From: a virus
Taxonomy: Duplodnaviria; Caudoviricetes
IMG/VR virus record: IMGVR_UViG_3300017716_001704
Span: 1 to 46,929 of that record
Strand: one strand, 5' to 3'
Length of the DNA: 46,929 nt
The notes beneath the pieces are model-generated. The model was not told the origin of the DNA, searched no databases, and worked only from the letters and a program-made list of their open reading frames with translations. This document shows positions 11,638 through 46,575 of the stretch, piece by piece. Numbering within the stretch: position 1 is the first letter of the stretch; each line of letters begins with the position of its first letter. A program made the position numbers and the translations under genes.

Positions 11638-12933
11638 TTAGAAGCCGCTGAAGCGTGTTCCGAGCAGAGGATCGACGTTTTCAGCGCCGTAGATGCAGTC
11701 CCAGCGGTGGATGTGCGCGCCGGTGGCGATGTCAGAGCCGCGCCAGTAGCGGATGCTGATGCCCGTTTCCGGGTCGCTGGCGAAGCTGGAGACGCCGGTG
11801 GCCGGGGTCACAAGCTGGGCCGACACAAGCTGGATGGACGACTTGTGCCATGCGGCGCGCTGGCTGAAGCTGGACGAGGCGTTGCCTGCCCACGACAGAA
11901 CCGCAGCGTTGGCCGGGATGGCCGAGCAGGTCGCGAAGGACGTGTTGACGCGCTGAGTTTGCAGCGAGCCGCCAGTGTTCGGGACGATGATCGGCGGGCT
12001 GATCGTCAGCGTGACTGCGCCAGCGCCGTCGGCAACAGCATCGGCTGCGACCGTGAACTGCATGAGTTCCGCCGAGCCGGTGGAACCAGTGACAGTCTGT
12101 TGCGTACGCGGGTTGATGCGGAACACGTTCGGGATCGTGAACACTTCGCCTTTGCGGAACGTAGCGTTCGCGCCAGCGGAGTTGAGGATCAGGGACTGCG
12201 TCATCGTGTCCTTGACCGTGTCGTAGTTCACGTTCTGGTTCGCGCCGTTGATGGCGGCAGCGGCTGCCTGCGCGCGCGTGCCGGTCGTGAGGACCGACGG
12301 AGACTGCGTGCGGTAGTAGTCGATGTCCGACAGCATCGGAACCTTCGCCTTTTTCATGGCGTTGGCCGCTTCGGTCGTCATGAACTTGTCGATCAGGTTC
12401 GACTGGACGCCAGCGTTGTCGTTGATGGTCATGAAGCCGACACGGTCCGTCGAGGGAACCGCGAGGTTTTCGAGACGGGTCCAGACCGGGATTTCCTGTT
12501 GCACAGTGGACAGAGGCAGGTCGGTAGCGATTGCGCCGGGCGCGTTAACCCACGACGGGAACTTCTGAACGAAGGTGTGCAGGTAACTGTCGATGCCCTG
12601 TGCGAGCGCCGACGCCGCAGACTTCATCGTCTGGGCTTTGATGAGTTCGTTGTAGGACTGGACGTACTGGAGGTCCGTGATCGAGATGTGGACGTTCGAG
12701 TACTGGTCAACGTCGATGGACGTCGAGCCGGTCACGATGTCTTGCAGGTCGAGGTTCGGACCCGAGGTCATTACGAAGCGCGGAGGGCGCTTGACGCTGA
12801 TCTTCAGGCCGTTCTTGTCCGTGACTTGGTTCGTGAACTTCGTGTCCACGAGCTTGCCCATGACGAGGGCGTTTTTGACAAGCAGGAGCATGACGTTCGC
12901 ATACACTTGCTCGTTGAGAAATTGGTTAGCCAT
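11638..12933 (-). CDS. Major capsid protein (P22 coat family)
   Basis: 431 aa, 'MAN.FL...' start, 'GDV/GEVFTI..V..INP.T', C-terminal 'R.D.IYG...V.P.L'. Follows scaffold, ends at a terminator. Confidence 0.9.
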   Translation of the reverse strand: MANQFLNEQVYANVMLLLVKNALVMGKLVDTKFTNQVTDKNGLKISVKRPPRFVMTSGPNLDLQDIVTGSTSIDVDQYSNVHISITDLQYVQSYNELIKAQTMKSAASALAQGIDSYLHTFVQKFPSWVNAPGAIATDLPLSTVQQEIPVWTRLENLAVPSTDRVGFMTINDNAGVQSNLIDKFMTTEAANAMKKAKVPMLSDIDYYRTQSPSVLTTGTRAQAAAAAINGANQNVNYDTVKDTMTQSLILNSAGANATFRKGEVFTIPNVFRINPRTQQTVTGSTGSAELMQFTVAADAVADGAGAVTLTISPPIIVPNTGGSLQTQRVNTSFATCSAIPANAAVLSWAGNASSSFSQRAAWHKSSIQLVSAQLVTPATGVSSFASDPETGISIRYWRGSDIATGAHIHRWDCIYGAENVDPLLGTRFSGF

Positions 12934-12960: not shown

Positions 12961-14076
12961 TTACTGGTTTGCTTTCCGTGCAGCGTCTTCAGCCTTCATC
13001 ATGGCTTCGAACGCAGCGAAGTCTTTGGTGCCAGCGTCAGGCTTGAACTGTCCGCCCGCCCCTCGCACTTGCGACATGGGTTTGGGTGCAGACGGCATAT
13101 GCCCTGCCGCTCCGTCCTTGACCCCGCTTTTGGGCTTGTCGCCCGACGGTTGCGAGAACCGAACTTCCAGCTTGCCGAACTCCGCAGCCTGACGGGTGAG
13201 CGGGAGGTCGAAAATCCTTTGGCTTTCCGCAGGATCGCTTGCTAAGTGATAAAGTACGTCATGGCCCACATCACTGTCAACAGCCATTTCCCACATTTGT
13301 TTCGAAAGTTTCCAGTCTGAAGTGGACTTCAGTACCTTATCTTCGAAATCTGCATTAGCAGCCGCGCCTTTTTCGATGGTACCGCCCCAGCGGGTCGTAC
13401 GTTCGGCTTCGACCGCGCGCTCTGCGTCGGCCTGTGTCTTAGCAGCCTCTTTGGCCTCGCGCTTGGCGAGGGTCTGTTCGACGCGCCACTCCACGAGGGC
13501 TTCCTGATAGTTCGGGTCGTACTCGCCAAATTCGAAGTCTTCAGCGCTGGGCTTGCCTTCCGCCGTGACAGGGGCGGGCTGGTCGGTCTTGGGCGCTGCC
13601 TTGGCCGTGGGCTTGCCGCCGTTGGCCTCCAGTTCCGCCGCGCGGGCTTCGGCATCTTCGGCGCGCTGGAGCGCGGCGCGCTCGCGGGCGTCGGCTTCGT
13701 GACGCTGGCGGGTAAGCTCCCCGAGACGGGCTTTCAGGCTGACCTTTTTAGGGCCTTTACCGGCTTCCGCAGCGGCAACTTCCTCGGCTGTAGGCGGGGT
13801 TTCTTCGCCCTCGTCTTCATCTTCCGTGGTCGCGGCAGCAGCAGCCGCGGCTTCCGCAGCCTTGGCCTGATCTTCTATCTGTGACGCCGGGCGCACGCCG
13901 CCGTCGGTTTCGATGGTGGCCGCACCGGCTGTAGGGTTCTCGTCTTTCGACATCTGGGCTTCGAAGTCCGCGAAGCTCGTGAAGCCTGCTTCATCGTTCG
14001 TTGCCGCAGCCGCGCCGGGCGGGACAGTGCCGCCGTCGTTGCCGTTGTTGACAAGTCCTGCTTTTGAAAAGGCCAT
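12961..14076 (-). CDS. Scaffolding protein
   Basis: Acidic, Ala-rich coiled coil between portal and capsid; 'V.YHLA..P.E..RI......QA.E.GKLE' motif. Confidence 0.8.
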   Translation of the reverse strand: MAFSKAGLVNNGNDGGTVPPGAAAATNDEAGFTSFADFEAQMSKDENPTAGAATIETDGGVRPASQIEDQAKAAEAAAAAAATTEDEDEGEETPPTAEEVAAAEAGKGPKKVSLKARLGELTRQRHEADARERAALQRAEDAEARAAELEANGGKPTAKAAPKTDQPAPVTAEGKPSAEDFEFGEYDPNYQEALVEWRVEQTLAKREAKEAAKTQADAERAVEAERTTRWGGTIEKGAAANADFEDKVLKSTSDWKLSKQMWEMAVDSDVGHDVLYHLASDPAESQRIFDLPLTRQAAEFGKLEVRFSQPSGDKPKSGVKDGAAGHMPSAPKPMSQVRGAGGQFKPDAGTKDFAAFEAMMKAEDAARKANQ

Positions 14077-19483: not shown

Positions 19484-19512
19484 AACGTATTATCACCTGC
19501 GTCGTACGTCAA
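19484..19512 (-). promoter_or_regulatory. Putative sigma70-type promoter for terS (leaderless)
   Basis: TTGACG-N17-TACGTT ending 6 nt before the ATG at 19477; no SD sequence. Confidence 0.5.
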
Positions 19513-19943
19513 GCCAGTTTCACGAACTGGACGCCATAGCCCGAGCAATGGTCGTGTTTGATGGACGATGCCACGGCCTGCCGCGCGGAAGCCCCGAAAG
19601 CCATAGCGCCGAGCGCATAGTCCGCGCCAGAGCCCATGGCGTAGTACGGGGCCTCGAACATGGCCTTGCCGTACCTGTCGTGGTTTTCCACAGTGCCGTC
19701 CGGTCGTACGACCATAATTTGCGAAGCGCTGTCCTCGTCGGTGCCGAGTGTGGGGGCCGTGCCGCGCTCACCGGCCAGAAACCACTCCACCCAGCGCTGA
19801 CACACGGAAACTGTGCCGCAGAAGCCGATCAAGGAACCGTCCGACTTGCGGCGCGTTACCTTGCGGGTAGTTCCGATGTGACCGCCGCCGGAAATGGCGC
19901 GATCAGCGGCCATTACGCCGTCTTTGTACGCAACAGTGGTCAT
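19509..19943 (-). CDS. HslV/proteasome beta-subunit-like Ntn peptidase
   Basis: MTT N-terminus, 'AAD', and 'A.GSG..YALGAM..GASA..AV......D..SG' motif. Confidence 0.8.
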   Translation of the reverse strand: MTTVAYKDGVMAADRAISGGGHIGTTRKVTRRKSDGSLIGFCGTVSVCQRWVEWFLAGERGTAPTLGTDEDSASQIMVVRPDGTVENHDRYGKAMFEAPYYAMGSGADYALGAMAFGASARQAVASSIKHDHCSGYGVQFVKLA

Positions 19944-24662: not shown

Positions 24663-24715
24663 CATCTTATCGAAGGACGGCAGGGATTGGCCCTGCAAAG
24701 CCGGTGGAGACTAAA

Positions 24716-25489
24716 ATGCTGCAACCTGACCTGCCTGTGTACCCCGTTCCGGCCCTCTGCCCGCCGGTTCCGGCCCTGATCGCCCGCAAGGCTGATCGCC
24801 CGACCGAAGAACAGTACGGCGATTTTCAGGCTGCCTATGACTACTTCAACAAGGCCCTTTTCGGTGGCAAGCTGCCGCAGTGCCTTATCACGCTGGTTCG
24901 CTCGCGCCGGTTCCGTGGCTACTTCCTGACGGAGGGCTTTATCTCCGCCGATGGCGAGGGCCGGAAAACCGATGAAATCGCGATGAACCCGGAAAGCTTT
25001 GAGGGCCGGACCGATAAGGCCATCCTGTCAACGCTGGTTCACGAGATGTGCCACCTGCAACAGTTCCACTTTGGCAAGCCGTCACCGGGCGGCTACCACA
25101 ACAAGCAGTGGGGCGACTACATGAAAGCCGTCGGCCTGTACCCGTCCAACACTGGCCTGCTTATGGGCAAGGAAACGGGCGTTCAGATGACGCACTATGT
25201 GCTTGAGGGTGAGGCGTTCTGCAAGGCGGCTGACGCACTGATTGCCCAAGGGTGGGCGATCCGTTGGCGCACACCGCAGGACATGGCGCTGAGCGCTGCT
25301 GGCGGCTTGTCCGGGTTCGTGCCCCCGAGCATGCCCCTGCTGATGGGCAAGCGCGCAACGGCTAAGCGTCAGTCCAAGACGCGTTACACATGCCCGGTTA
25401 GCGGCGTAGCGGCTTGGGGCAAGCCCGGCCTGACGCTCTACACGGCGGCAGGTGCAGCGCTGATGCTGGCAATGATTGAGGAGGGCTGA
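24716..25489 (+). CDS. SprT-like zinc metalloprotease domain protein
   Basis: 'YDYFN..LF.G.LP.C.ITL', 'STLVHEMCHL' (HExxH), 'YHNK.W...M..VGL.P'; GGAGA RBS. Confidence 0.85.
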   Translation: MLQPDLPVYPVPALCPPVPALIARKADRPTEEQYGDFQAAYDYFNKALFGGKLPQCLITLVRSRRFRGYFLTEGFISADGEGRKTDEIAMNPESFEGRTDKAILSTLVHEMCHLQQFHFGKPSPGGYHNKQWGDYMKAVGLYPSNTGLLMGKETGVQMTHYVLEGEAFCKAADALIAQGWAIRWRTPQDMALSAAGGLSGFVPPSMPLLMGKRATAKRQSKTRYTCPVSGVAAWGKPGLTLYTAAGAALMLAMIEEG

Positions 25490-36461: not shown

Positions 36462-36644
36462 ATGCCGCGCACTGAGTTCGAGACGTTCTTCGAAGACACC
36501 TTCAACCCCCTGCTGGAAAAGCTTGCGACGTACGACAGCGGTGTCGTGTTCAGCGATGGTGGCACGATAAATGAAGCGAGTTGGGACCGCAAAGCGGCTT
36601 ATCTCGTGTGGATGATCGCCAACGGTATGGATGCTCCAGAATGA
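36462..36644 (+). CDS. Hypothetical protein
   Basis: GGAGG RBS; ATGA overlap with the polymerase gene. Confidence 0.65.
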   Translation: MPRTEFETFFEDTFNPLLEKLATYDSGVVFSDGGTINEASWDRKAAYLVWMIANGMDAPE

Positions 36645-38587
36645 TCCCACGTTGCGCCGTAGTAGACTTCGAAACACACCCCATTGACGAGGACATAGCG
36701 TGGAAGCCGCCGGTGCCGGTGGGCGTCGTGCTGAAGATGCCGGGCAACGTGTCGCTGTATCTGCGCTGGGGCCACCCGAGCGGCAACAACACGACGTACG
36801 ACGCAGCCAAAAAGGTTCTGGAGACGCTGTGGGCAAGCACGCTGCCGATGCTGTTCCACAACGCGAAGTTTGACCTGTCGGTGGCCCGGTATCATTTCGG
36901 GCTGGAGGTGCCGGACTGGACCCGCATCCACGATACGATGTTTCTGGGCTACCTCGACAACCCGCACAACAGGCGCATGGGCCTGAAAGAAATGTGCGCC
37001 GACATGTTGAACTGGCCCGCTGACGAGAAGGACGCCGTGGGCGAATGGCTCTGGATCAACCGCGCCTACGTCTACAAGCACACCGGACGTCGCCTGAACC
37101 GCAGCGCTGGCAAGGTCACGAAGCAGGGCGAGTTCTACTGGCTCGTGCCCGGCGACATTCTTGAGCCGTACGCCGTAGGCGACACCGACCGTACGGAGGC
37201 ACTGTTCGAGCACCTGTACGCCAGCGTGTTGGCAGAAGGCATGGGTCCGGCGTACGACAGAGAGCGCCAACTTCTGCCGATCCTTATGGAGAACGAGCGC
37301 GACGGCATCGCCATCGACGGGCCGCGCCTACAGACCGACATCGTTACCTACACGCTGGCGTTCGACAAAGCCGAGGATTGGCTGCGCGAGTATCTGAAAG
37401 CGCCGGGGCTCAACTTCGACGCTGACGCTGACGTGGGCCAAGCGCTTATCCACGCCGACGCGCTGCAAGGCAGTCTGACGCTGACCAAGGACGGCGACCT
37501 GTCCATTAGCAAGGTCAACCTGCTGCCCGAGAACTATCGTGACGTACGACTGTTTCAGGTGCTGGGCTACCGCAACAGGTTGAAGACCTGTCTGGAAATG
37601 TTCATGAAGCCGTGGCTGGCACAGGCCATGCGGCGACCGGACGGGCGCATCTCGACCAACTGGAACCAGACACGAGGCGGCGAAGGTGGCACACGAACTG
37701 GACGGCCAAGCACGACCAACCCCAACTTCCTCAACATTTCCAAAGACTTTGAAGGACGCCCTGACGGCTACACCCATCCAGATTTTCTGGGCGTTCCATC
37801 ACTCCCTCTCGTGCGGCAGTATATCCTGCCCGATAAGGGTCACGTCTTTCTGCACCGAGACTTCGACGGCCAAGAGCTAAGGGTCTTCGGTCACTTCGAA
37901 AGCGGCAAGCTGCACGCGGCCTATCTGGCAGACCCGAGCCTCGACGTTCACACGCTGGTCATGGGCGAAATCCAGAGGCTTAGCCCGAACACGAAGCTCG
38001 ACCGTACGAAGGTGAAGATCATCAACTTCCGTACGATCTACGGCTCCGGCGTGCCCGGCCTGTCCGAGGCGCTGAACTGCAACCGCGACACGGCGAAAGA
38101 GTTCAAGGACGTCCACGCCAAGGCTCTGCCGGGCATGAAAATCCTGAACGACGAAATCAAGCGGCTCGTCGGGCGCAAGCTGCCGATCATCACATGGGGC
38201 GGACGCCGCTACCATCCCGAGCCGCCGAAGCGCGACAAGGACACAGGGCAGTGGAAGGATTATGTCTACAAGCTGCTGAACTATCTCGTACAGGGCAGCG
38301 CCGCGGACCTGACCAAGCAGGCCATCATCGAGTGGTACCACGACCCCCGCCGCGACCCGCGCACGCGCTTTCTTGTTACCGTATACGATGAAATCAATAT
38401 CAGTTGTCCAATAGAATGCGCTCTGGAGCAAATGCTTTTACTGAAAGAGGTAATGGGCCGTCAGCGTCTTACCGTGCCTATGCTTTCTGCCGGTAAGTGG
38501 GGCTGGTCATGGGGCGATGCTGTGAAGCCCGGCAAGGGCGAGACTGAGGAGGAGGCACTTACCAAATGGCTGAAACTCGCCGCCTAA
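36641..38587 (+). CDS. DNA polymerase family A with 3'-5' exonuclease
   Basis: ExoI DFET, ExoII HNAKFD, ExoIII YAVGD; TGRPS..NPNF.NI; motif A DFDGQELR; motif B K..NF...YG; motif C YDE. Confidence 0.95.
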   Translation: MIPRCAVVDFETHPIDEDIAWKPPVPVGVVLKMPGNVSLYLRWGHPSGNNTTYDAAKKVLETLWASTLPMLFHNAKFDLSVARYHFGLEVPDWTRIHDTMFLGYLDNPHNRRMGLKEMCADMLNWPADEKDAVGEWLWINRAYVYKHTGRRLNRSAGKVTKQGEFYWLVPGDILEPYAVGDTDRTEALFEHLYASVLAEGMGPAYDRERQLLPILMENERDGIAIDGPRLQTDIVTYTLAFDKAEDWLREYLKAPGLNFDADADVGQALIHADALQGSLTLTKDGDLSISKVNLLPENYRDVRLFQVLGYRNRLKTCLEMFMKPWLAQAMRRPDGRISTNWNQTRGGEGGTRTGRPSTTNPNFLNISKDFEGRPDGYTHPDFLGVPSLPLVRQYILPDKGHVFLHRDFDGQELRVFGHFESGKLHAAYLADPSLDVHTLVMGEIQRLSPNTKLDRTKVKIINFRTIYGSGVPGLSEALNCNRDTAKEFKDVHAKALPGMKILNDEIKRLVGRKLPIITWGGRRYHPEPPKRDKDTGQWKDYVYKLLNYLVQGSAADLTKQAIIEWYHDPRRDPRTRFLVTVYDEINISCPIECALEQMLLLKEVMGRQRLTVPMLSAGKWGWSWGDAVKPGKGETEEEALTKWLKLAA

Positions 38588-38880
38588 CCATCTTCGACAA
38601 GGTCATGAAGCGCGTCCTGATAAGGGACATGGGCTGGAAGACGCCGTGCTGGATGTGGACTGGTCCGCACTCCGGCAAGGGCCGTGGCGGTGGCTATGGC
38701 AGGATGTGCCTCGACGGACAGACTGTTGCCGTCCACCTCGTCATGTTCACACATTTCTTCGGCTTCATACCGGGCAAGAAACAAGTCGATCACTTGTGCA
38801 AGGTCCGGCTTTGCTGTAACCCTGACCACCTCGAACTGACTACGCACAAGCAGAACATGCGCCGGAGGGACGCCAAATGA
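38566..38880 (+). CDS. HNH endonuclease
   Basis: 'CW.WTG','GYG','DHLC..R.CCNP.HLE..T...N'. Confidence 0.9.
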   Translation: MAETRRLTIFDKVMKRVLIRDMGWKTPCWMWTGPHSGKGRGGGYGRMCLDGQTVAVHLVMFTHFFGFIPGKKQVDHLCKVRLCCNPDHLELTTHKQNMRRRDAK

Positions 38881-39122
38881 TCGAGACTACCCCGTCACGC
38901 CGCGGCTTCCTAAAGCTGGTCGGCATGGGCGTGGGTGTCGCGGCAACTGCGCCGTACGTCAAACTCCTACCCGTGGCGGCTGCGCCGGTGGTGGAGGCCG
39001 CACCTGTAGTGGCCGTGGCGGCGTCGGGCAGTCAGTTTATCGGCGCGCAAGAGTACGCGAACATTATGCTTAAGCTCGTCAAGGAAAACCTGATGATGGC
39101 ACAGTACGTGGTGAAACAATGA
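38877..39122 (+). CDS. Small protein: twin-arginine signal plus capsid N-arm-like C-terminus
   Basis: SRRGFLK followed by a hydrophobic stretch; GGAGG RBS; ATGA overlaps at both ends. Confidence 0.75.
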   Translation: MIETTPSRRGFLKLVGMGVGVAATAPYVKLLPVAAAPVVEAAPVVAVAASGSQFIGAQEYANIMLKLVKENLMMAQYVVKQ

Positions 39123-39835
39123 ACATTCTCGGATACTCTGCGACGTACGACAACAAGCCGCTGAAGCTGCCGGACGCATGGAGCTACAGCCGCCTCGCGG
39201 ACTATGAAATGTGCCCGGCGCGGTTCGCCTACAAGTACATCATCAAAATTCCCGAGGGCGAGAACGAAGCCTTCGTACGGGGCAACGCGGTCCACAAGCT
39301 CGCTGAGAAGTTCGTGTGCAACGAGCTAGGCTCTGAAGTGCCGCGCGAGCTTGCCACCTTCGCTGACCTGTTCCAGTTGCTGCGCAAGAACCCCGAGGGC
39401 GTGTTCACCGAGCAGCAGTGGGCGTTCACCGATCAGTGGCAGGTGACAGGCTGGTTTGCCAAGCCGCCGAAGGCTGCATGGGTCCGCAACATCGTGGATT
39501 TGGGCATCAACCACGGCGACGGCCACATGGCGCTGATCGACCACAAGACCGGCAAGAAGTACGACACCAACGAGGAGCAGGTAGAGCAGTTCGGCATGAG
39601 CGCGTTCCTCCGCTTCCCCGACATCCAGACCGTCGAGACGCGTCTCTGGTATCTCGACAGCGGCGAGGAGGTCGTACGACACATGAAGCGCGACAGCCTG
39701 CCGACGCTGAAGGCCAAGTGGAAGCTCCGCGTCGAGCCCATGTTCTTCGACAAGCACTTCGCGCCGCGCAAGAACAGCAAGTGCAAGTGGTGCCCTTTCA
39801 GCGGCAGCAGTGGTGGCCCGTGTCTCGTCGGCTAA
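39119..39835 (+). CDS. PD-(D/E)XK exonuclease (RecB/Cas4-like)
   Basis: 'WSYSRL..Y..CP','RG..VH','D...IDHKTGK', C-terminal 'C.WCPF......C'. Confidence 0.88.
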   Translation: MNILGYSATYDNKPLKLPDAWSYSRLADYEMCPARFAYKYIIKIPEGENEAFVRGNAVHKLAEKFVCNELGSEVPRELATFADLFQLLRKNPEGVFTEQQWAFTDQWQVTGWFAKPPKAAWVRNIVDLGINHGDGHMALIDHKTGKKYDTNEEQVEQFGMSAFLRFPDIQTVETRLWYLDSGEEVVRHMKRDSLPTLKAKWKLRVEPMFFDKHFAPRKNSKCKWCPFSGSSGGPCLVG

Positions 39836-40158
39836 CTGAGAAGCAGGTCCGCGACCCTGTTGTGGCGTGGCACAAGACCCACGGCGGGCTGCACGAGCGC
39901 AACCACAAGGGCAAGGGTGCGGCGACCGGCTGGCCTGACGACAGGTTTTACTTCGGTTCCGGCCACTGCTACATGGTGGAGTTCAAGTCGAGCGATGGCC
40001 CGACTAGTGCAAGGCAAGAGTACATCATCAATCTTCTGAAGGCCGCAGGGCATGACGTGGACATCCACAACGAGCCAAACGAAGCGATTAGCGCCCTCGC
40101 ACAACGTCTGGATACCTTCGGCGGGGCAGGCATCGGCGGTCGAACACCTCATCCGTAA
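39820..40158 (+). CDS. VRR-NUC domain nuclease
   Basis: GTG 39820; 'E..V','GWPD','VEFK.......Q' motifs. Confidence 0.8.
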   Translation: MSRRLTEKQVRDPVVAWHKTHGGLHERNHKGKGAATGWPDDRFYFGSGHCYMVEFKSSDGPTSARQEYIINLLKAAGHDVDIHNEPNEAISALAQRLDTFGGAGIGGRTPHP

Positions 40159-42211
40159 TGGAGCAGCGGTACTATGGGCGGACGTCGGCGCGGGCAAGAC
40201 TTCTATATCGTTGACGGCATTCACGGAGCTTCAGAAAGCTGGTGTCGCCAAGCGTGGCTTGGTGATGGCGACGGTTCGTATCTGCCAACTTACATGGAAG
40301 CAGGAAGCGGCGAAGTGGTCGCACACGAAGCACCTGAAAATCGAGTTCCTGCACGGCCCCAACAAGGACAAGCTGCTAGCCGACGGTATGCGGTTGCAAC
40401 CCGGTCTAGGCGGTGTGGACTTGTTTCTCATCAACTACGAGGGCTTGCCATGGCTATGCGGCAAGTACGCTGGCAAGGGCGGGCTGCCCTTTGACACCAT
40501 CATCGCGGACGAACTGACCAAGCTCAAGAACGCCACCGGCATCCGCTTCAAGGCTCTGAAGAAAGCCACCATTCGTACGGCGCGCAAGTGGGGCCTGACC
40601 GGCACGCCAGCGCCGAACGGCTACCTCGACCTGTTCGGGCAGTTCCTCTGGATCGACGGCGGCGCATCGCTAGGCCCGTTCTACAGCCACTACCGCGACA
40701 ACTATTTCCAGCCTGACTTTGACGGCTTCAACTACAAGATACAGAAGGGCGGCGAGGCCCGCATCAAAGAGCGTATCAAGAACATCGTCTACCGGCTGGA
40801 GTACACCGACCTTCCGGCGAGCCGCGACAACGACATCTTCATCGAACTGGGCAGCAAGGCACGTAAGACGTACGACACAATGCGGAAGGAGATGCTGATC
40901 CAGATCGAGGGCAGCGTCATCACCGCGGGCAACGCGGCGGCTGTGTATGCCAAGCTGAAGCAGATGGCGAACGGCGCAGTCTACACCGCCGAGATACCGG
41001 GCAAGAAACGCGAGTACGTCGTCATCCACGAGGACAAGATCGACGCGCTGGTGGAGTTGGTAGAGAGCTTGCAAGGCCAACCCTTGCTCGTGGCCTACCA
41101 GTACCACCACGACCTTGAACGCATCCAGCAGCGGCTTAAGAAAGAGTTCGGCTGGGACGTCCCGTATATGGGCAGCGGTGTGTCCGAGAAAGACGCCATC
41201 CGCCTGCAAGACGAGTGGAACGCCAACAAGCTGCCGGTCATGCTCTGCCAGCCGCAGTCGGTCGGCCACGGCCTTAACTTCCAAGAGGGCGGCGCAGGAC
41301 ACCTGTGCTGGTTCTCGTCAGACTTCAACCTTGAGACGTACAACCAGTTCATCGGTCGCATCCGTCGTAAGGGCAACACAAGCGAGCGCGTCGTCATTCA
41401 CCGGCTTATCGTCAAGGACAGTATTGACGAGGTCGTGTTCGCGGCGTTAGAAGACAAGGATACCACGCAGGTCCGTCTCTTGCAGGGACTGCGACAGGTG
41501 CTCCACGGTGAGCCAACAACGCGCCCGACGGCTTCGGGTACTGATACGGAGGACGACATGACCCAACTTCGCAGACTGCCAGCACAGGGCGCGGCTCCGC
41601 CGCCTCCGGCACAGCCTACACAACAACGCGCCGCCGCACCGGCAGCGCCCGCAGCGGCTCCCGCTCCGCCTCCGGCACGCGTCGTACCGCGCGGCTGGGG
41701 CCAGCAGGCTTCCGCCACACAAGCCGCGCCGCCTGCCAACCCGCAGGCCGCTGCCATCCAAGGCAAGCTGCAAGGCGCTGGTTCGTACGTCGCACCGGCG
41801 GCTGAGCCGGAAGTCGAGCAGGAAGTCGAGGAGGTGTCTGTTGCTGACGCTGCTGCCGACCACATCAACGCCGCTATGGGGCTCGCTATCCAGAGTGACG
41901 CTGACGGCGATCCGAACACACCACCGGCTCCGCCAGTGGAAACTGCCGCCCCCGCACCCAAGGCAACACGCGCACGTCGTACGGCAGCAGCTACGCCTAG
42001 CGCGCCGAACGCCATGGACATGCACGCCCACGCAGAAAAGACTGCTACCACGGCACTGCCGCCGGTCGCCGTCAACGCACAGGCCATCCGTCCGGCGTCG
42101 GAAGGCGAGGCGCAAGTGACCATCAACTTCTACGGCTCGCCGTCGGCGGTCGCACAAGCCATGATGACGCTGATAACGTCCTTCAAGGACATGACGCACG
42201 ATTACTCTTAG
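40052..42211 (+). CDS. SNF2-family helicase with long Pro/Ala-rich C-terminal extension
   Basis: 'GAGKT','INYE','IADE...LKN','LTGTP.PN','GHGLNFQ','Q..GRI.R.G'. Confidence 0.88.
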   Translation: MTWTSTTSQTKRLAPSHNVWIPSAGQASAVEHLIRNGAAVLWADVGAGKTSISLTAFTELQKAGVAKRGLVMATVRICQLTWKQEAAKWSHTKHLKIEFLHGPNKDKLLADGMRLQPGLGGVDLFLINYEGLPWLCGKYAGKGGLPFDTIIADELTKLKNATGIRFKALKKATIRTARKWGLTGTPAPNGYLDLFGQFLWIDGGASLGPFYSHYRDNYFQPDFDGFNYKIQKGGEARIKERIKNIVYRLEYTDLPASRDNDIFIELGSKARKTYDTMRKEMLIQIEGSVITAGNAAAVYAKLKQMANGAVYTAEIPGKKREYVVIHEDKIDALVELVESLQGQPLLVAYQYHHDLERIQQRLKKEFGWDVPYMGSGVSEKDAIRLQDEWNANKLPVMLCQPQSVGHGLNFQEGGAGHLCWFSSDFNLETYNQFIGRIRRKGNTSERVVIHRLIVKDSIDEVVFAALEDKDTTQVRLLQGLRQVLHGEPTTRPTASGTDTEDDMTQLRRLPAQGAAPPPPAQPTQQRAAAPAAPAAAPAPPPARVVPRGWGQQASATQAAPPANPQAAAIQGKLQGAGSYVAPAAEPEVEQEVEEVSVADAAADHINAAMGLAIQSDADGDPNTPPAPPVETAAPAPKATRARRTAAATPSAPNAMDMHAHAEKTATTALPPVAVNAQAIRPASEGEAQVTINFYGSPSAVAQAMMTLITSFKDMTHDYS

Positions 42212-42245: not shown

Positions 42246-42279
42246 GGGGCCTTCCTAACCGGGGAGGCCCCTTTTGTTT
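42246..42279 (+). terminator. Intrinsic terminator overlapping the endolysin RBS
   Basis: GGGGCCTTCC/GGGAGGCCCC stem followed by TTTTGTTT. Confidence 0.75.
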
Positions 42280-42992: not shown

Positions 42993-43269
42993 CGACTACC
43001 TCACGAAGTCTGCCGTACGGCGCATGTACCCGCCGATCCTGCTGGCCGACGGTGACGTGCTGACGTACGGCTCTGCCTGTCAGATCGTGGAGCACAACGT
43101 CACCTTCTATTGCGAAAACCCCGGCAGTCGCCCGCCGGGGTTTCCAGTCCGTCTGTGTGAGGCCGATCCTACTTCCGTTTGCGAGCAGGTTTTGGGGTCG
43201 CCCGCTTCTTCCGCCGCGCCGGTTTCTTCGCCACCTCCGCGCGCCCTTTCGGTGTCAGTTCGAAGCTAG
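42892..43269 (+). CDS. Outer-membrane spanin lipoprotein (Rz1-like)
   Basis: Signal peptide with lipobox LTSC; overlaps the Rz-like gene in another frame. Confidence 0.65.
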   Translation: MKALKLLLPAAILAFTMFLTSCAAMPSPVGLNADDYLTKSAVRRMYPPILLADGDVLTYGSACQIVEHNVTFYCENPGSRPPGFPVRLCEADPTSVCEQVLGSPASSAAPVSSPPPRALSVSVRS

Positions 43270-43879
43270 GCTCGTCGGCCACGACCCGTACGTCATAGTC
43301 GCCGCTGTAGAACTTCGCCACGTCGGCGGGGCTTACGCCGCACGTCGGCAGCTTGTTGAACGACAGAGGCTGAGCGTGCTTGTGACCGCGCGCCTTCGCC
43401 AGATCGTCCAGCCCCTGTTCGACCCACTGTGAGCCGTGCAGGAACAGCTTGTCCTTGTACCACGTCGCTATGGCAGAGCGGTCGCCGCCCGGTGAAGCAA
43501 GGTCCACGCCAATGTGAAGCTCCTCGGGGAACCGTGAGCCACGGCCCGGCGACATGCCCTCTGCCTCAAGCTCCTCTTGCAGCAGCGCCAGAGCGCGCCA
43601 CGCCAGAGCGGCGGAGTGGCGGACCTTGTACTCCTCGCCGTTGTACGTGACGTACTCGAACGTGCCGCGGTCAACGACGTGTCGTACGATGCAGTCTGCG
43701 TGGTCAGACGAGTTGCCCCGTGACCAGTGCAGGGGCAGGCCGGGGTTATGCTTCTCGTTTCCGATGAAGCTGTGCTCTGCGACGGCTGCCAGAGCCGCCG
43801 GGAAGTAGTCCAGCAGCCCCGCCGCCATGGGCGTGCGCTTTCGCTGGGCCGTATCTTGGGAAATGTAGTTCTCGGTCAT
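43169..43879 (-). CDS. DUF5664-type (dATP/dGTP diphosphohydrolase-like) domain protein with basic tail
   Basis: ATG 43879 after GGAGG; 'P.AL..VA..S..G..KH......W........D...RH ... H.A..AWRALA.LQ'. Confidence 0.7.
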   Translation of the reverse strand: MTENYISQDTAQRKRTPMAAGLLDYFPAALAAVAEHSFIGNEKHNPGLPLHWSRGNSSDHADCIVRHVVDRGTFEYVTYNGEEYKVRHSAALAWRALALLQEELEAEGMSPGRGSRFPEELHIGVDLASPGGDRSAIATWYKDKLFLHGSQWVEQGLDDLAKARGHKHAQPLSFNKLPTCGVSPADVAKFYSGDYDVRVVADEPSFELTPKGRAEVAKKPARRKKRATPKPARKRK

Positions 43880-43932
43880 TAGAGCCTCCGTGGTGCGTTT
43901 GGACCGTTTATGGGACGTGGGTAGCAGACAGG

Positions 43933-44634
43933 TTAGGCGATGCAGTTGTACGGCGACGTGACGCCGAAGTTGTAGACCGGCAGCGGCTTGGCAAATGCCT
44001 TGGCGAGCACAGCATAGGCGTCGAGCAGGTTCAGCCATTCTTTCTTCGCCGTACGCCAGTGTTTCTCCTCGAACAGACTTGGCGGCAGGTCGGGGATGGG
44101 TTCGAAGCCCTCCATGCCGTACCACGGCTGGTCAGCCGGACGCATGACGAAGGTGCGCTCGTTGGCGATGATGCGGCGGTCGTACGCGCGAACGATGTCG
44201 CTCTCGACCAGAGGCACGTCGATGTCGTAGACGCGCATGGCGAGCCGCAGCGCCGCGCTGATCGGGCGGGCCATGGCGCGGAACTCCGGGCAGCGGTCCT
44301 TGATAGGCGTGCGCAGGTCGCCGGTGAAGGCTTCCTCCGCGTCGTGGAACAGAGCGTCGAGGCACAGTACCGGATCGTGTGTGGCGTCCCAGATCGCGAC
44401 CGACAGGGCGACAGAGTGCTGTGCTACGCTGTAGGGGTAGATGGCCGCGCCGCCGTAGCGGTTGATCGTGGCGAGGTGGTGCGCGATGTCTTCCAGAAAG
44501 TAGGGGTTCGTTTCGGCGCTGCCCTCGTTGTAGTAGAACGCCGCGCCGCTATAGGTCTGGCTCCAGTAGTTCGCGTCGGCTGGTTTTTTCTGATCGGCAT
44601 CGAGCTTGTCGATAAGAGTTTTCGTATCCGTCAC
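43933..44634 (-). CDS. HD-domain phosphohydrolase (YfdR/YfbR-like 5'-deoxynucleotidase)
   Basis: 'EDIAH.L....RY.G.....YSVAQHS','ALFHDA.EA..GD..TP.K'; GTG 44634 after GGGAGG. Confidence 0.85.
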   Translation of the reverse strand: MTDTKTLIDKLDADQKKPADANYWSQTYSGAAFYYNEGSAETNPYFLEDIAHHLATINRYGGAAIYPYSVAQHSVALSVAIWDATHDPVLCLDALFHDAEEAFTGDLRTPIKDRCPEFRAMARPISAALRLAMRVYDIDVPLVESDIVRAYDRRIIANERTFVMRPADQPWYGMEGFEPIPDLPPSLFEEKHWRTAKKEWLNLLDAYAVLAKAFAKPLPVYNFGVTSPYNCIA

Positions 44635-44792
44635 CGTGGCCTCCCCGGCTTGGGGTTCGCGTGGTACTCGCGCCCCTGTTTCAGAAACCACCGTGTCCGG
44701 CGGCGCGAGTAGTTCGCTTGCAATTTCTTTGCCGCTGCGCGGAACGCCGCTAGCTCCTCCGGGGTTAGCTCATCAGGAGGAGTATCAAGCAT
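44631..44792 (-). CDS. Small hypothetical protein (53 aa, absent from the ORF track)
   Basis: MLDTPPDELTPEELAAFRAAAKKLQANYSRRRTRWFLKQGREYHANPKPGRPR read by hand; overlaps both neighbours. Confidence 0.5.
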   Translation of the reverse strand: MLDTPPDELTPEELAAFRAAAKKLQANYSRRRTRWFLKQGREYHANPKPGRPR

Positions 44793-46575
44793 GCCATTTT
44801 CCATCGAACACCGTCAGCATTTGCCGCTTACCGTTCTCGTGAATGACGCAGAAGGAAATCGACCAATTCCCCGGCGAGCCCATGGCGTACTCAAGCTCAA
44901 GTACCATGACCCCGACCTGCCATGCGCCGTTGATTATGCCCGCCCCGTGTCCGTGGCCTATGACCACCTTACGCCCGAGGTTCGACAGGTTCTTGAGGCT
45001 GCCACGCGAGCCGCCCGGACCCTGATCGCCATGGAAGCCAAGCTCGATGCCGCCGCCGTCGTTCTTGCAGACGACGTACGACTGGCCGGGCGCGAGCCAC
45101 AGCGTTTCTTTGATGCCGCCGCCATTGATATACTCCACCGCGCACTGCATCGCGTTGAAGCTTACGTCCTGCCGGAGCGCCCGGAGATACGCTAGGTGGA
45201 TGTGTCCGCAGAACTCTGCGTTGTCTAGGTCGAAGCGCCAGTCCACCTCGCGCAGGTAGCGTTCGAAGTGGCGGTCGTGGTTCGAGTTGACGATGACGTC
45301 CTCGACACCCTTGCGGTGGCCGGACTTGAGGAAGTTAAGCGTCGAGGCGTACTCCGTCTCGATACTCTTGCCCTTCACCACACGCAGCGAGAACATTTTG
45401 TAGGGGTCGCGGCGGTTGTGGTGGCCGAACTCGAAATCCGCAAGGTCGTGGTAGACCTGCCGCTTCGGGTTCAGCGTATCGAGCGCGCCGTGTGCGCCCC
45501 AGCACAGGTCGCGTATCTGCTGTGTGAGGTGTATCTCGTGGATGTCGCCCCAGATGACGCTGTCGGTCCCTTTGGGCCGTACGACACGGTCAGCGTAGAA
45601 CGCGATGGGGCCGTCCGGCGTCACGTCGTAGATGCCGCCAGCATTGTCGGTGTTCAACTGCCGGACCCACCAATGGCCCTTGTCGTTCACCTCCACGAGG
45701 AGCCCGCCGTAGATGTGGTCGAACTCCGCCTTCTGCCCGGCCTTGCGCTGGATGTAGTTGCGCTTAGTGACGGTCCCGGTCGTGTACTGGAGCTTCGCCG
45801 CGTCGGAAGGCGACGTCGGGATGCTGAGCATGTGCTGCCGTACGTGCGGGAAGATGGAGGAGTTGCGGAAGTTGTAGTTGGCGAGGCCGGACAGCGGCTC
45901 GCTCGCGGTCGGCCAGTTGTTGAAGTTGCCGTTCCAGATCAGGCCCTTGCCAAGCTGGATCATGGCGTCAGCCACGAAGGGCTCGATACGGTCGTCGTAC
46001 CACTGGTCGTCGCCGTCGCTGGCCTTTTTCGAGCCGCGCTTGCCGGAGCCGTCGCGGGTCTTGCTGTACGTGAACGTGGACACCATGAGTTCCGCGCCAT
46101 AGTGGTCGGCGCAGGTCTGCAAGGCCAGCCACGTCGGCTCGTGTAGCAGCGTGTTGTTCTGGGCGCAGGTGAGGATGTAGCGCGCGATCTTGCCCTTCTC
46201 AGGCAGCGGTCGTACGACAGGCTTCGTGGCGTCGTTCGAGCCTGTCACCGTAGCGGCCACGCCGCGCTGTTCCGCAGCCTTCAGACGTTTCGAAAACGCG
46301 GCAGCAGAGATACCTGCGGCATCCGCAGCGGCTGCAATCGTGCCGAAGATCGAGAGTTGGTTCTGCGCGTCACGCAGTTCCTGATCGGTCAGCTTTACCC
46401 CGCCAGCCTTGGGACGGTCGGGGCGTATCTTGATTTCAGGGAAATGTTCGCGGGCTTCGGCTAGCCGCTTGCGCATGTAGCGAAGGGTGATGCCCAACTC
46501 CGCCGCAGCGTCTTCTGCTTTTTCGTGCTTGTTGTAGGAACTAACCGTGCGCTGTAGGAGTTTCTTAGTGGTCAC
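44785..46575 (-). CDS. Metallophosphoesterase/nuclease with N-terminal HTH, T5 A1-like
   Basis: 'GDIH','HDL.D','SNHD','HGD.G','GHGH' metal-binding motifs; 'AQNNT' and 'NYIQRKAGQKA' recalled from A1-like proteins. Confidence 0.7.
   Translation of the reverse strand: MTTKKLLQRTVSSYNKHEKAEDAAAELGITLRYMRKRLAEAREHFPEIKIRPDRPKAGGVKLTDQELRDAQNQLSIFGTIAAAADAAGISAAAFSKRLKAAEQRGVAATVTGSNDATKPVVRPLPEKGKIARYILTCAQNNTLLHEPTWLALQTCADHYGAELMVSTFTYSKTRDGSGKRGSKKASDGDDQWYDDRIEPFVADAMIQLGKGLIWNGNFNNWPTASEPLSGLANYNFRNSSIFPHVRQHMLSIPTSPSDAAKLQYTTGTVTKRNYIQRKAGQKAEFDHIYGGLLVEVNDKGHWWVRQLNTDNAGGIYDVTPDGPIAFYADRVVRPKGTDSVIWGDIHEIHLTQQIRDLCWGAHGALDTLNPKRQVYHDLADFEFGHHNRRDPYKMFSLRVVKGKSIETEYASTLNFLKSGHRKGVEDVIVNSNHDRHFERYLREVDWRFDLDNAEFCGHIHLAYLRALRQDVSFNAMQCAVEYINGGGIKETLWLAPGQSYVVCKNDGGGIELGFHGDQGPGGSRGSLKNLSNLGRKVVIGHGHGAGIINGAWQVGVMVLELEYAMGSPGNWSISFCVIHENGKRQMLTVFDGKWHA

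Follow-up and report, generated by a model that had tools for sequence, protein, structure and literature searches.

A phage gene that joins a twin-arginine leader to a capsid N-arm homologue, and what it may do

Why would a phage carry, in the middle of its replication genes, a short protein that begins like an export signal and ends like the start of a capsid protein? The question is raised by an 81-residue open reading frame (ORF) in IMG/VR record IMGVR_UViG_3300017716_001704, which was analysed over its whole length of 46,929 nucleotides (hereafter the window). The initial annotation had read this ORF as a twin-arginine (Tat) signal peptide fused to a copy of the phage's own capsid N-arm and had proposed several roles for an exported or membrane-tethered capsid mimic.

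Anatomy and setting of the fusion ORF

The record represents a complete phage genome of 46.9 kb with direct terminal repeats. Pfam and PHROG matches identified a P22-like portal, scaffold and coat on the minus-strand arm, and the plus-strand arm carries a primase-like gene, a family A polymerase, a PD-(D/E)XK nuclease and an SNF2 helicase. Three runs that contain DNA related to this phage were labelled freshwater metagenome, one of which may be its source, and a gene for a GapR-like DNA-binding protein (PF10073, 35970-36236, plus strand) is taken by us as a hint at an alphaproteobacterial host. The fusion ORF, termed P0001, and its neighbours were laid out as follows, where P0122 is a homologue, G001 the nearest relative and X2 an independent run, all described below.

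36581..38587 (+), family A DNA polymerase (PF00476), upstream of the fusion ORF in the same gene run
38566..38880 (+), HNH endonuclease gene (PF13392), separately optional, using the ATG at which the nuclease begins in G001
38864..38868 (+), Shine-Dalgarno-like GGAGG, 8 nt before the ATG of the fusion ORF
38877..39122 (+), Tat-leader::capsid-N-arm fusion ORF (P0001), 81 aa, ATG start
38895..38915 (+), twin-arginine motif S7-K13 (SRRGFLK; TIGR01409), unchanged in P0122 and in the X2 allele
38916..38960 (+), hydrophobic h-region L14-V28, read from the sequence, following the twin-arginine motif
38961..39032 (+), Ala/Pro/Val linker K29-S52, predicted disordered and containing candidate cleavage sites of AxA type
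39033..39110 (+), capsid N-arm homologue Q53-V78, predicted helix, 14 of 26 residues identical to the phage's own capsid
39119..39835 (+), PD-(D/E)XK nuclease (PF12705), downstream neighbour of the fusion ORF

The leader scored 20.3 bits against TIGR01409 (cut-off 16.7), with the HMM match spanning residues 7-30, and was the sole match to this model in the genome. The Tat motif, hydrophobic stretch and Ala/Pro/Val linker that had been read by eye were borne out. AxA-like sites are visible by eye in the leaders of both P0001 and P0122. P0001 had no Pfam or PHROG match, and the full HK97 fold, made up of the P, A and I domains, is missing from it. When the fusion was modelled, at low confidence (two-sequence alignment, pLDDT 58), the model contained two helices only, a leader helix and a tail helix at residues 57-80 (block pLDDT 71-90), with a disordered linker (pLDDT below 50 over residues 17-51). 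A transmembrane role for the tail was ruled out by its best 19-residue hydropathy of 0.77.

The GGAGG element suggests that the ORF is translated, and ATGA overlaps couple it to the HNH gene upstream and to the PD-(D/E)XK nuclease downstream. The polymerase-helicase gene run that contains it ends at a terminator-like hairpin (42246-42271), and no promoter-like site stood above chance. The ribosome-binding site, the coupling on both sides and the location in the replication operon thus hold as first described. However, in the haplotype without the fusion ORF the same ribosome-binding site and ATG serve the nuclease, so they provide no evidence of selection on the fusion ORF. Its position in the gene run points to early expression.

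Several other genes of the phage were recorded. An SprT-like metalloprotease (24704-25489, plus strand) is the first long gene of the plus-strand arm, and the SNF2 helicase (40052-42211, plus strand) has an Ala/Pro/Gln-rich C-terminal extension of more than 200 aa that is also present in G001. A minus-strand cluster (43169-46575) encodes a dATP/dGTP diphosphohydrolase N-terminal domain, a YfbR-like HD protein and a 596-aa protein with a weak HTH match only; a role in nucleotide metabolism or base modification is possible. In the packaging arm, a 144-aa protein (19509-19943, minus strand) had a weak proteasome-subunit match below the cut-off (PF00227, E 0.0011).

Source of the capsid-like tail

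The tail was compared with the head genes of the minus-strand arm.

11638..12933 (-), major capsid protein of the P22/Sf6 type, 431 aa (PF11651, phrog_283)
12847..12924 (-), capsid N-arm matching the tail (residues 4-29 of the major capsid protein), with model helices at 8-22 and 25-28
12961..14076 (-), scaffolding protein (phrog_8865), whose conserved C-terminal motif is a candidate coat-binding site

Residues 53-78 of the fusion ORF aligned without gaps to capsid residues 4-29, with 14 of 26 residues and 52 of 78 nucleotides identical. The local score of the tail against the capsid was 68, which was reached by none of 500 shuffled tails scored against the six-frame window (mean 33, maximum 47) and by none of 200 shuffles of the whole ORF (maximum 60). 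The likeness, on whose significance the first proposal had been made to depend, is therefore beyond chance. The coat was modelled with AlphaFold (90-sequence alignment, pLDDT 86.6), and the top Foldseek matches of the model were Sf6, CUS-3 and P22. The N-arm of the P22 coat comprises residues 2-30 and holds the scaffold-binding helix, which acts through D14, E15 and E18 (PMC9965877, partial text); this agrees with the initial description of the arm as the scaffold-binding site. As the coat-model helices coincide with this range, the copied stretch was identified as the N-arm. The motif at the scaffold C-terminus was conserved across an alignment of 10 C-termini. A similar short acidic-aromatic motif was also seen near both the N- and the C-terminus of the scaffold, likewise in several relatives, and the two are possibly two coat-binding sites. 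When the tail (residues 48-81) was co-folded with the C-terminus of the scaffold, the score was 0.02, which carries no weight as evidence.

The tail is not closest to the phage's own capsid. Among the best 120 of 736 coat homologues, the own capsid ranked 70th by similarity to the tail, 22 capsids were more identical, and P0027 had the highest identity with 17 of 26. In a per-position consensus of 119 capsids (one truncated homologue was left out), the tail holds the consensus residues A8 (98 of 119) and E10 (83 of 119), where the own capsid has E and V. The claim of a copy of the own capsid thus survives in part: the tail is a genuine N-arm homologue, but a recent duplication of the phage's own capsid start is ruled out by the rank and by A8 and E10, and the expected tracking of the cognate capsid was not seen. 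Given that rank, the tail is most simply read as an old copy that stems from this broad capsid lineage and would have kept ancestral or family-consensus residues. Synonymous sites alone, noisy over 26 codons, would point to the phage's own clade as the source: for 10 of 11 arms (L039 was dropped, as its anchor motif is missing), dS of the tail was 0.66 to G001, 0.91 to the own arm, 1.01 to L004 and 1.05 to saturated for the seven others. In run X2, a contig with a loose end before 39044 has a match of about 40 nt to the tail and further upstream reads like the beginning of a P0027-type coat gene; the contig may represent such a coat gene or another fusion allele.

A phmmer search over 1.84 billion representatives returned one relative, P0122 (84 aa, E 1.7e-10), on a 516-nt contig. 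It is 59% identical to P0001 and has the same motif, linker and tail, while its TIGR01409 score of 10.8 bits is below the cut-off of 16.7. The two tails share 18 of 26 residues and the two h-regions 6 of 16 (P=0.059 for the difference). At 13 of 26 positions both tails have the family-consensus residue, and both are closest to P0027, with 16 of 22 and 18 of 22 identities. Both also carry changes at three positions that hardly vary among capsids, namely 6, 21 and 26 (N21 in 119 of 119, G26 in 117 of 119), and these shared changes together with the common closeness to P0027 point to one origin.

Further homologues were sought by several routes. A word search with P0001 recovered P0001 itself as the only hit among 381 candidates and missed P0122, so its sensitivity is limited. 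The 20 matches of a profile search comprised P0001, P0122, 17 capsid N-terminal fragments and one Tat-only protein. Viral scans gave 0 of 74 and, in a second scan, 2 of 54, both Tat-only; a metagenome scan gave 2 of 161, namely the phage's own record L030 and one chance match. No full-length homologue and four Tat-only proteins were present among the 600 matches listed in a genome scan, tblastn searches of phages, and of plasmids with P0122, gave no match, and the ESM Atlas returned generic Tat clusters or nothing usable. With two proteins among 1.84 billion representatives, the fusion family is very rare.

Optional occurrence, selection and a parallel case

In G001, the nearest relative (coat 87% identical, aligned blocks about 70-82% identical in nucleotides), the polymerase abuts the nuclease, and both the HNH gene and the fusion ORF are missing. 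Contigs of run X2 contained three states of the locus. In the first, both genes are absent (joint 38572 to 39141); in the second, HNH is present alone and the fusion ORF is precisely removed (joints 38875 to 39118 and 38880 to 39124); in the third, an allele of the 5' part of the fusion ORF (32 codons) has the RR motif unchanged. The joints are supporting rather than firm, since they come from single contigs of depth 2-5.7 that were matched at 80% likeness, with shorter sides of 26 and 31 nt at the two ORF joints. Gaps in contig cover over the fusion ORF in runs X2 and X3 were not counted as absence. The HNH-only haplotype rules out that the fusion ORF is a passenger of the HNH gene. The fusion was found neither in the P0027-like complete phage G006 nor in G008, and none of five related phages of at least 90% completeness had a TIGR01409 match, which makes a core role in procapsid assembly, among the roles first proposed, unlikely. 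On the genomes and contigs compared, the absence from G001, the X2 haplotypes and the five relatives mark the fusion ORF as an accessory gene, a precise optional insertion that appears to move independently of the HNH gene.

Signs of selection were mixed and came from small samples either way. The codon evidence is weak: dN/dS between the tail and the own arm was 0.40, against about 0.09-0.2 between capsids where dS could be estimated, and the X2 leader allele had three synonymous and seven non-synonymous changes in 32 codons (pN 0.10, pS 0.11, pN/pS about 0.9). If the tail branch is short, drift could yield an identity of 14 of 26 (P=0.56-0.11 for d=0.3-0.45), whereas 17 of 26 to the best capsid had P=0.008 at d=0.45, an optimistic value as it is the best of 120. 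Selection would be favoured by the open frames, the unchanged RR, mostly conservative changes (four in the h-region of the X2 allele relative to P0001), tails that are more alike than the h-regions, and recurrence of the design.

This recurrence came from one of three DNA-pattern scans of viral contigs for a leader combined with a capsid motif. The leader with YANxML gave 0 of 9 real cases, the leader with L[KE]N 0 of 74, and the leader with ITR 1 of 12, a 92-aa protein (L129:9895-10173, minus strand) in the unrelated complete phage G011, with a TIGR01409 score of 16.7, at the cut-off. Its residues 49-68 match residues 18-37 of the phage's own major head protein at 10 of 20 positions (0 of 500 shuffles), although the ITR pattern itself fixed about four of these ten identities and five lie beyond it. 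That head protein (336 aa, phrog_9953) belongs to a different family from the P22/Sf6-type coat, and we infer that the stretch copied from it is also an N-arm. At the level of sequence, the combination of a Tat leader with a capsid fragment was thus confirmed in two separate capsid families, and the separate example in G011 argues that the design was selected. Some phage Tat-leader proteins appear to be of another kind: two members of a family of about 145-aa proteins (L019:8738-9175 and L020:7558-7722), 68% identical, had no capsid or other second match in their own records, which are 80% and 51% complete. The L019 gene adjoins a small-terminase-like gene.

Possible functions and known systems

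The preferred reading, held tentatively and at somewhat less than even probability, is that the fusion ORF encodes an addressed bait. The protein would be made early, before the real capsid accumulates; its capsid-like helix would attach to a host protein able to recognise the phage capsid, and the leader would take the complex to the Tat translocase and out of the cytoplasm. The Tat route is favoured because Tat transports folded proteins along with bound partners, known as hitchhiker export. Bait and export together would account for the Tat leader, the repeated choice of capsid N-termini, the early-type location and the dispensability of the gene. The broader proposal, that phages have repeatedly built such chimeras as counter-defence, expelling a captured host capsid sensor or a rival scaffold through Tat, is rather unlikely.

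The bait would be in keeping with a fusion that exceeds chance and with the copied helix being a partner-binding surface in P22 (PMC9965877, partial text), and the retention of both modules in P0122 and the recurrence in G011 argue in the same direction. Gain and loss as a precise unit would be expected of an accessory gene in an arms race. Thoeris, CapRel and other defences respond to capsid proteins (PMC13728456, partial text), in line with the initial remark that several defence systems sense them, and Tat tolerates small unfolded substrates without exposed hydrophobic stretches (PMC13673990, partial text). Against the bait, capsid triggers in one screen required oligomerisation (PMC13728456, section 31), and a single helix may therefore escape recognition. 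The weak codon signal, the drift-compatible identity, the TIGR01409 scores of P0122 and G011, below and at the cut-off, and the rarity of the family would also weigh against it. We know of no sensor of the N-arm helix. A free capsid peptide can activate a sensor, as the T4 Gol peptide does with Lit, where a capsid-derived sequence is read by a host sensor.

The main rival, an unlikely one, places the scaffold in the role of the bound partner: the helix would bind the coat-binding motif of a co-infecting phage, of a CpmB-like satellite mimic or of the phage's own scaffold, and the leader would sequester it, blocking competitors or timing assembly. In P22 the scaffold binds at the N-arm (PMC9965877, partial text), the scaffolds of the clade share the conserved C-terminal motif, SaPI CpmB occupies the scaffold's binding site on the coat (PMC6893505, partial text), and related phages co-occur in run X2. 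Consensus residues retained in the tail but changed in the own capsid could spare self. However, binding to the own scaffold would harm the phage, both tails have changed N21 and G26, and the P22 site also uses R101, which lies outside the arm (PMC9965877, partial text).

A non-adaptive origin is quite unlikely. A small Tat-leader ORF would have picked up the beginning (5' end) of a capsid gene and would now be drifting as a passenger between coupled genes, which fits a rare and patchy gene, a leader allele with no purifying signal and a weak one in the tail, and a ribosome-binding site that pre-exists for the nuclease. Yet the frames are open in P0001, P0122 and the 32 X2 codons with the RR motif unchanged, the identity to the best capsid is improbable under drift by the optimistic estimate above, and the design arose separately in G011.

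An envelope effector is decidedly unlikely. The protein would stall or saturate Tat, or act in the membrane or periplasm in superinfection block or lysis timing, with the capsid part as a merely convenient amphipathic helix. The tail helices are indeed more amphipathic (hydrophobic moment 1.09 and 1.04, against 0.40 for the own arm), translocation ends late for unfolded substrates whose hydrophobic regions are exposed, and growth is impaired (PMC13673990, partial text), and L019 and L020, within their incomplete records, exemplify phage Tat leaders with no second match. Interrupted translocation does not, however, block the translocon according to the same partial text, and the use of capsid N-termini by separate phages is left unexplained. 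A membrane tether for procapsid assembly, with an uncleaved leader and a helix that swaps into a capsid subunit or binds scaffold, is very improbable: uncleaved class III Tat anchors exist (PMC13673990, partial text) and the tail covers the whole N-arm, but the gene is absent from G001 despite its similar capsid, it lies outside the head genes and no tracking of the own capsid by its tail was seen. Fewer points are accounted for by jamming of the translocon or by tethering than by bait and export.

If the bait reading holds, the parts of the capsid that are read by host defences or rival elements can be recognised from the copied fragments, and each such gene is a ready-made probe for its sensor; if drift does, the locus is still an example of a recurrent way in which new small genes arise in phages. 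With two separable modules in 81 residues, the gene is easy to test.

The fusion ORF is a real, rare, optional gene of undescribed design. No phage protein joining a structural-protein fragment to Tat was found in a literature search of titles and abstract openings that covered few subscription journals and no supplements, and a separate export-tagged capsid decoy is not described in the available parts of PMC13728456 or PMC13673990. With Tat substrates (PMC13673990, partial text) it shares the Z-R-R-x-hydrophobic motif, here S-R-R-G-F-L-K, the h-region and candidate AxA sites; it differs from classes I and III in being phage-encoded and in its passenger, a disordered linker and one capsid-derived helix instead of a folded domain. 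With the N-arm of the P22 coat family (PF11651; gp5 residues 2-30, PMC9965877, partial text) it shares a homologous helix of the same extent, but has only these 26 residues, without the HK97 fold, fused to a leader and changed at positions 6, 21 and 26. The triggers of Thoeris and CapRel SJ46 (PMC13728456, partial text) are capsid-derived sequence read by a host sensor, as the fusion would be under the bait reading, but are activators within the capsid protein, unlike a separate export-tagged fusion. SaPI CpmB, a scaffold mimic, and Ccm, with capsid homology (PMC6893505, partial text), are likewise accessory proteins that copy a head-assembly part. They are satellite-encoded and act inside assembly without an export signal, whereas the fusion ORF belongs to a complete phage that has head genes of its own, and where CpmB copies the scaffold side, the fusion copies the coat side.
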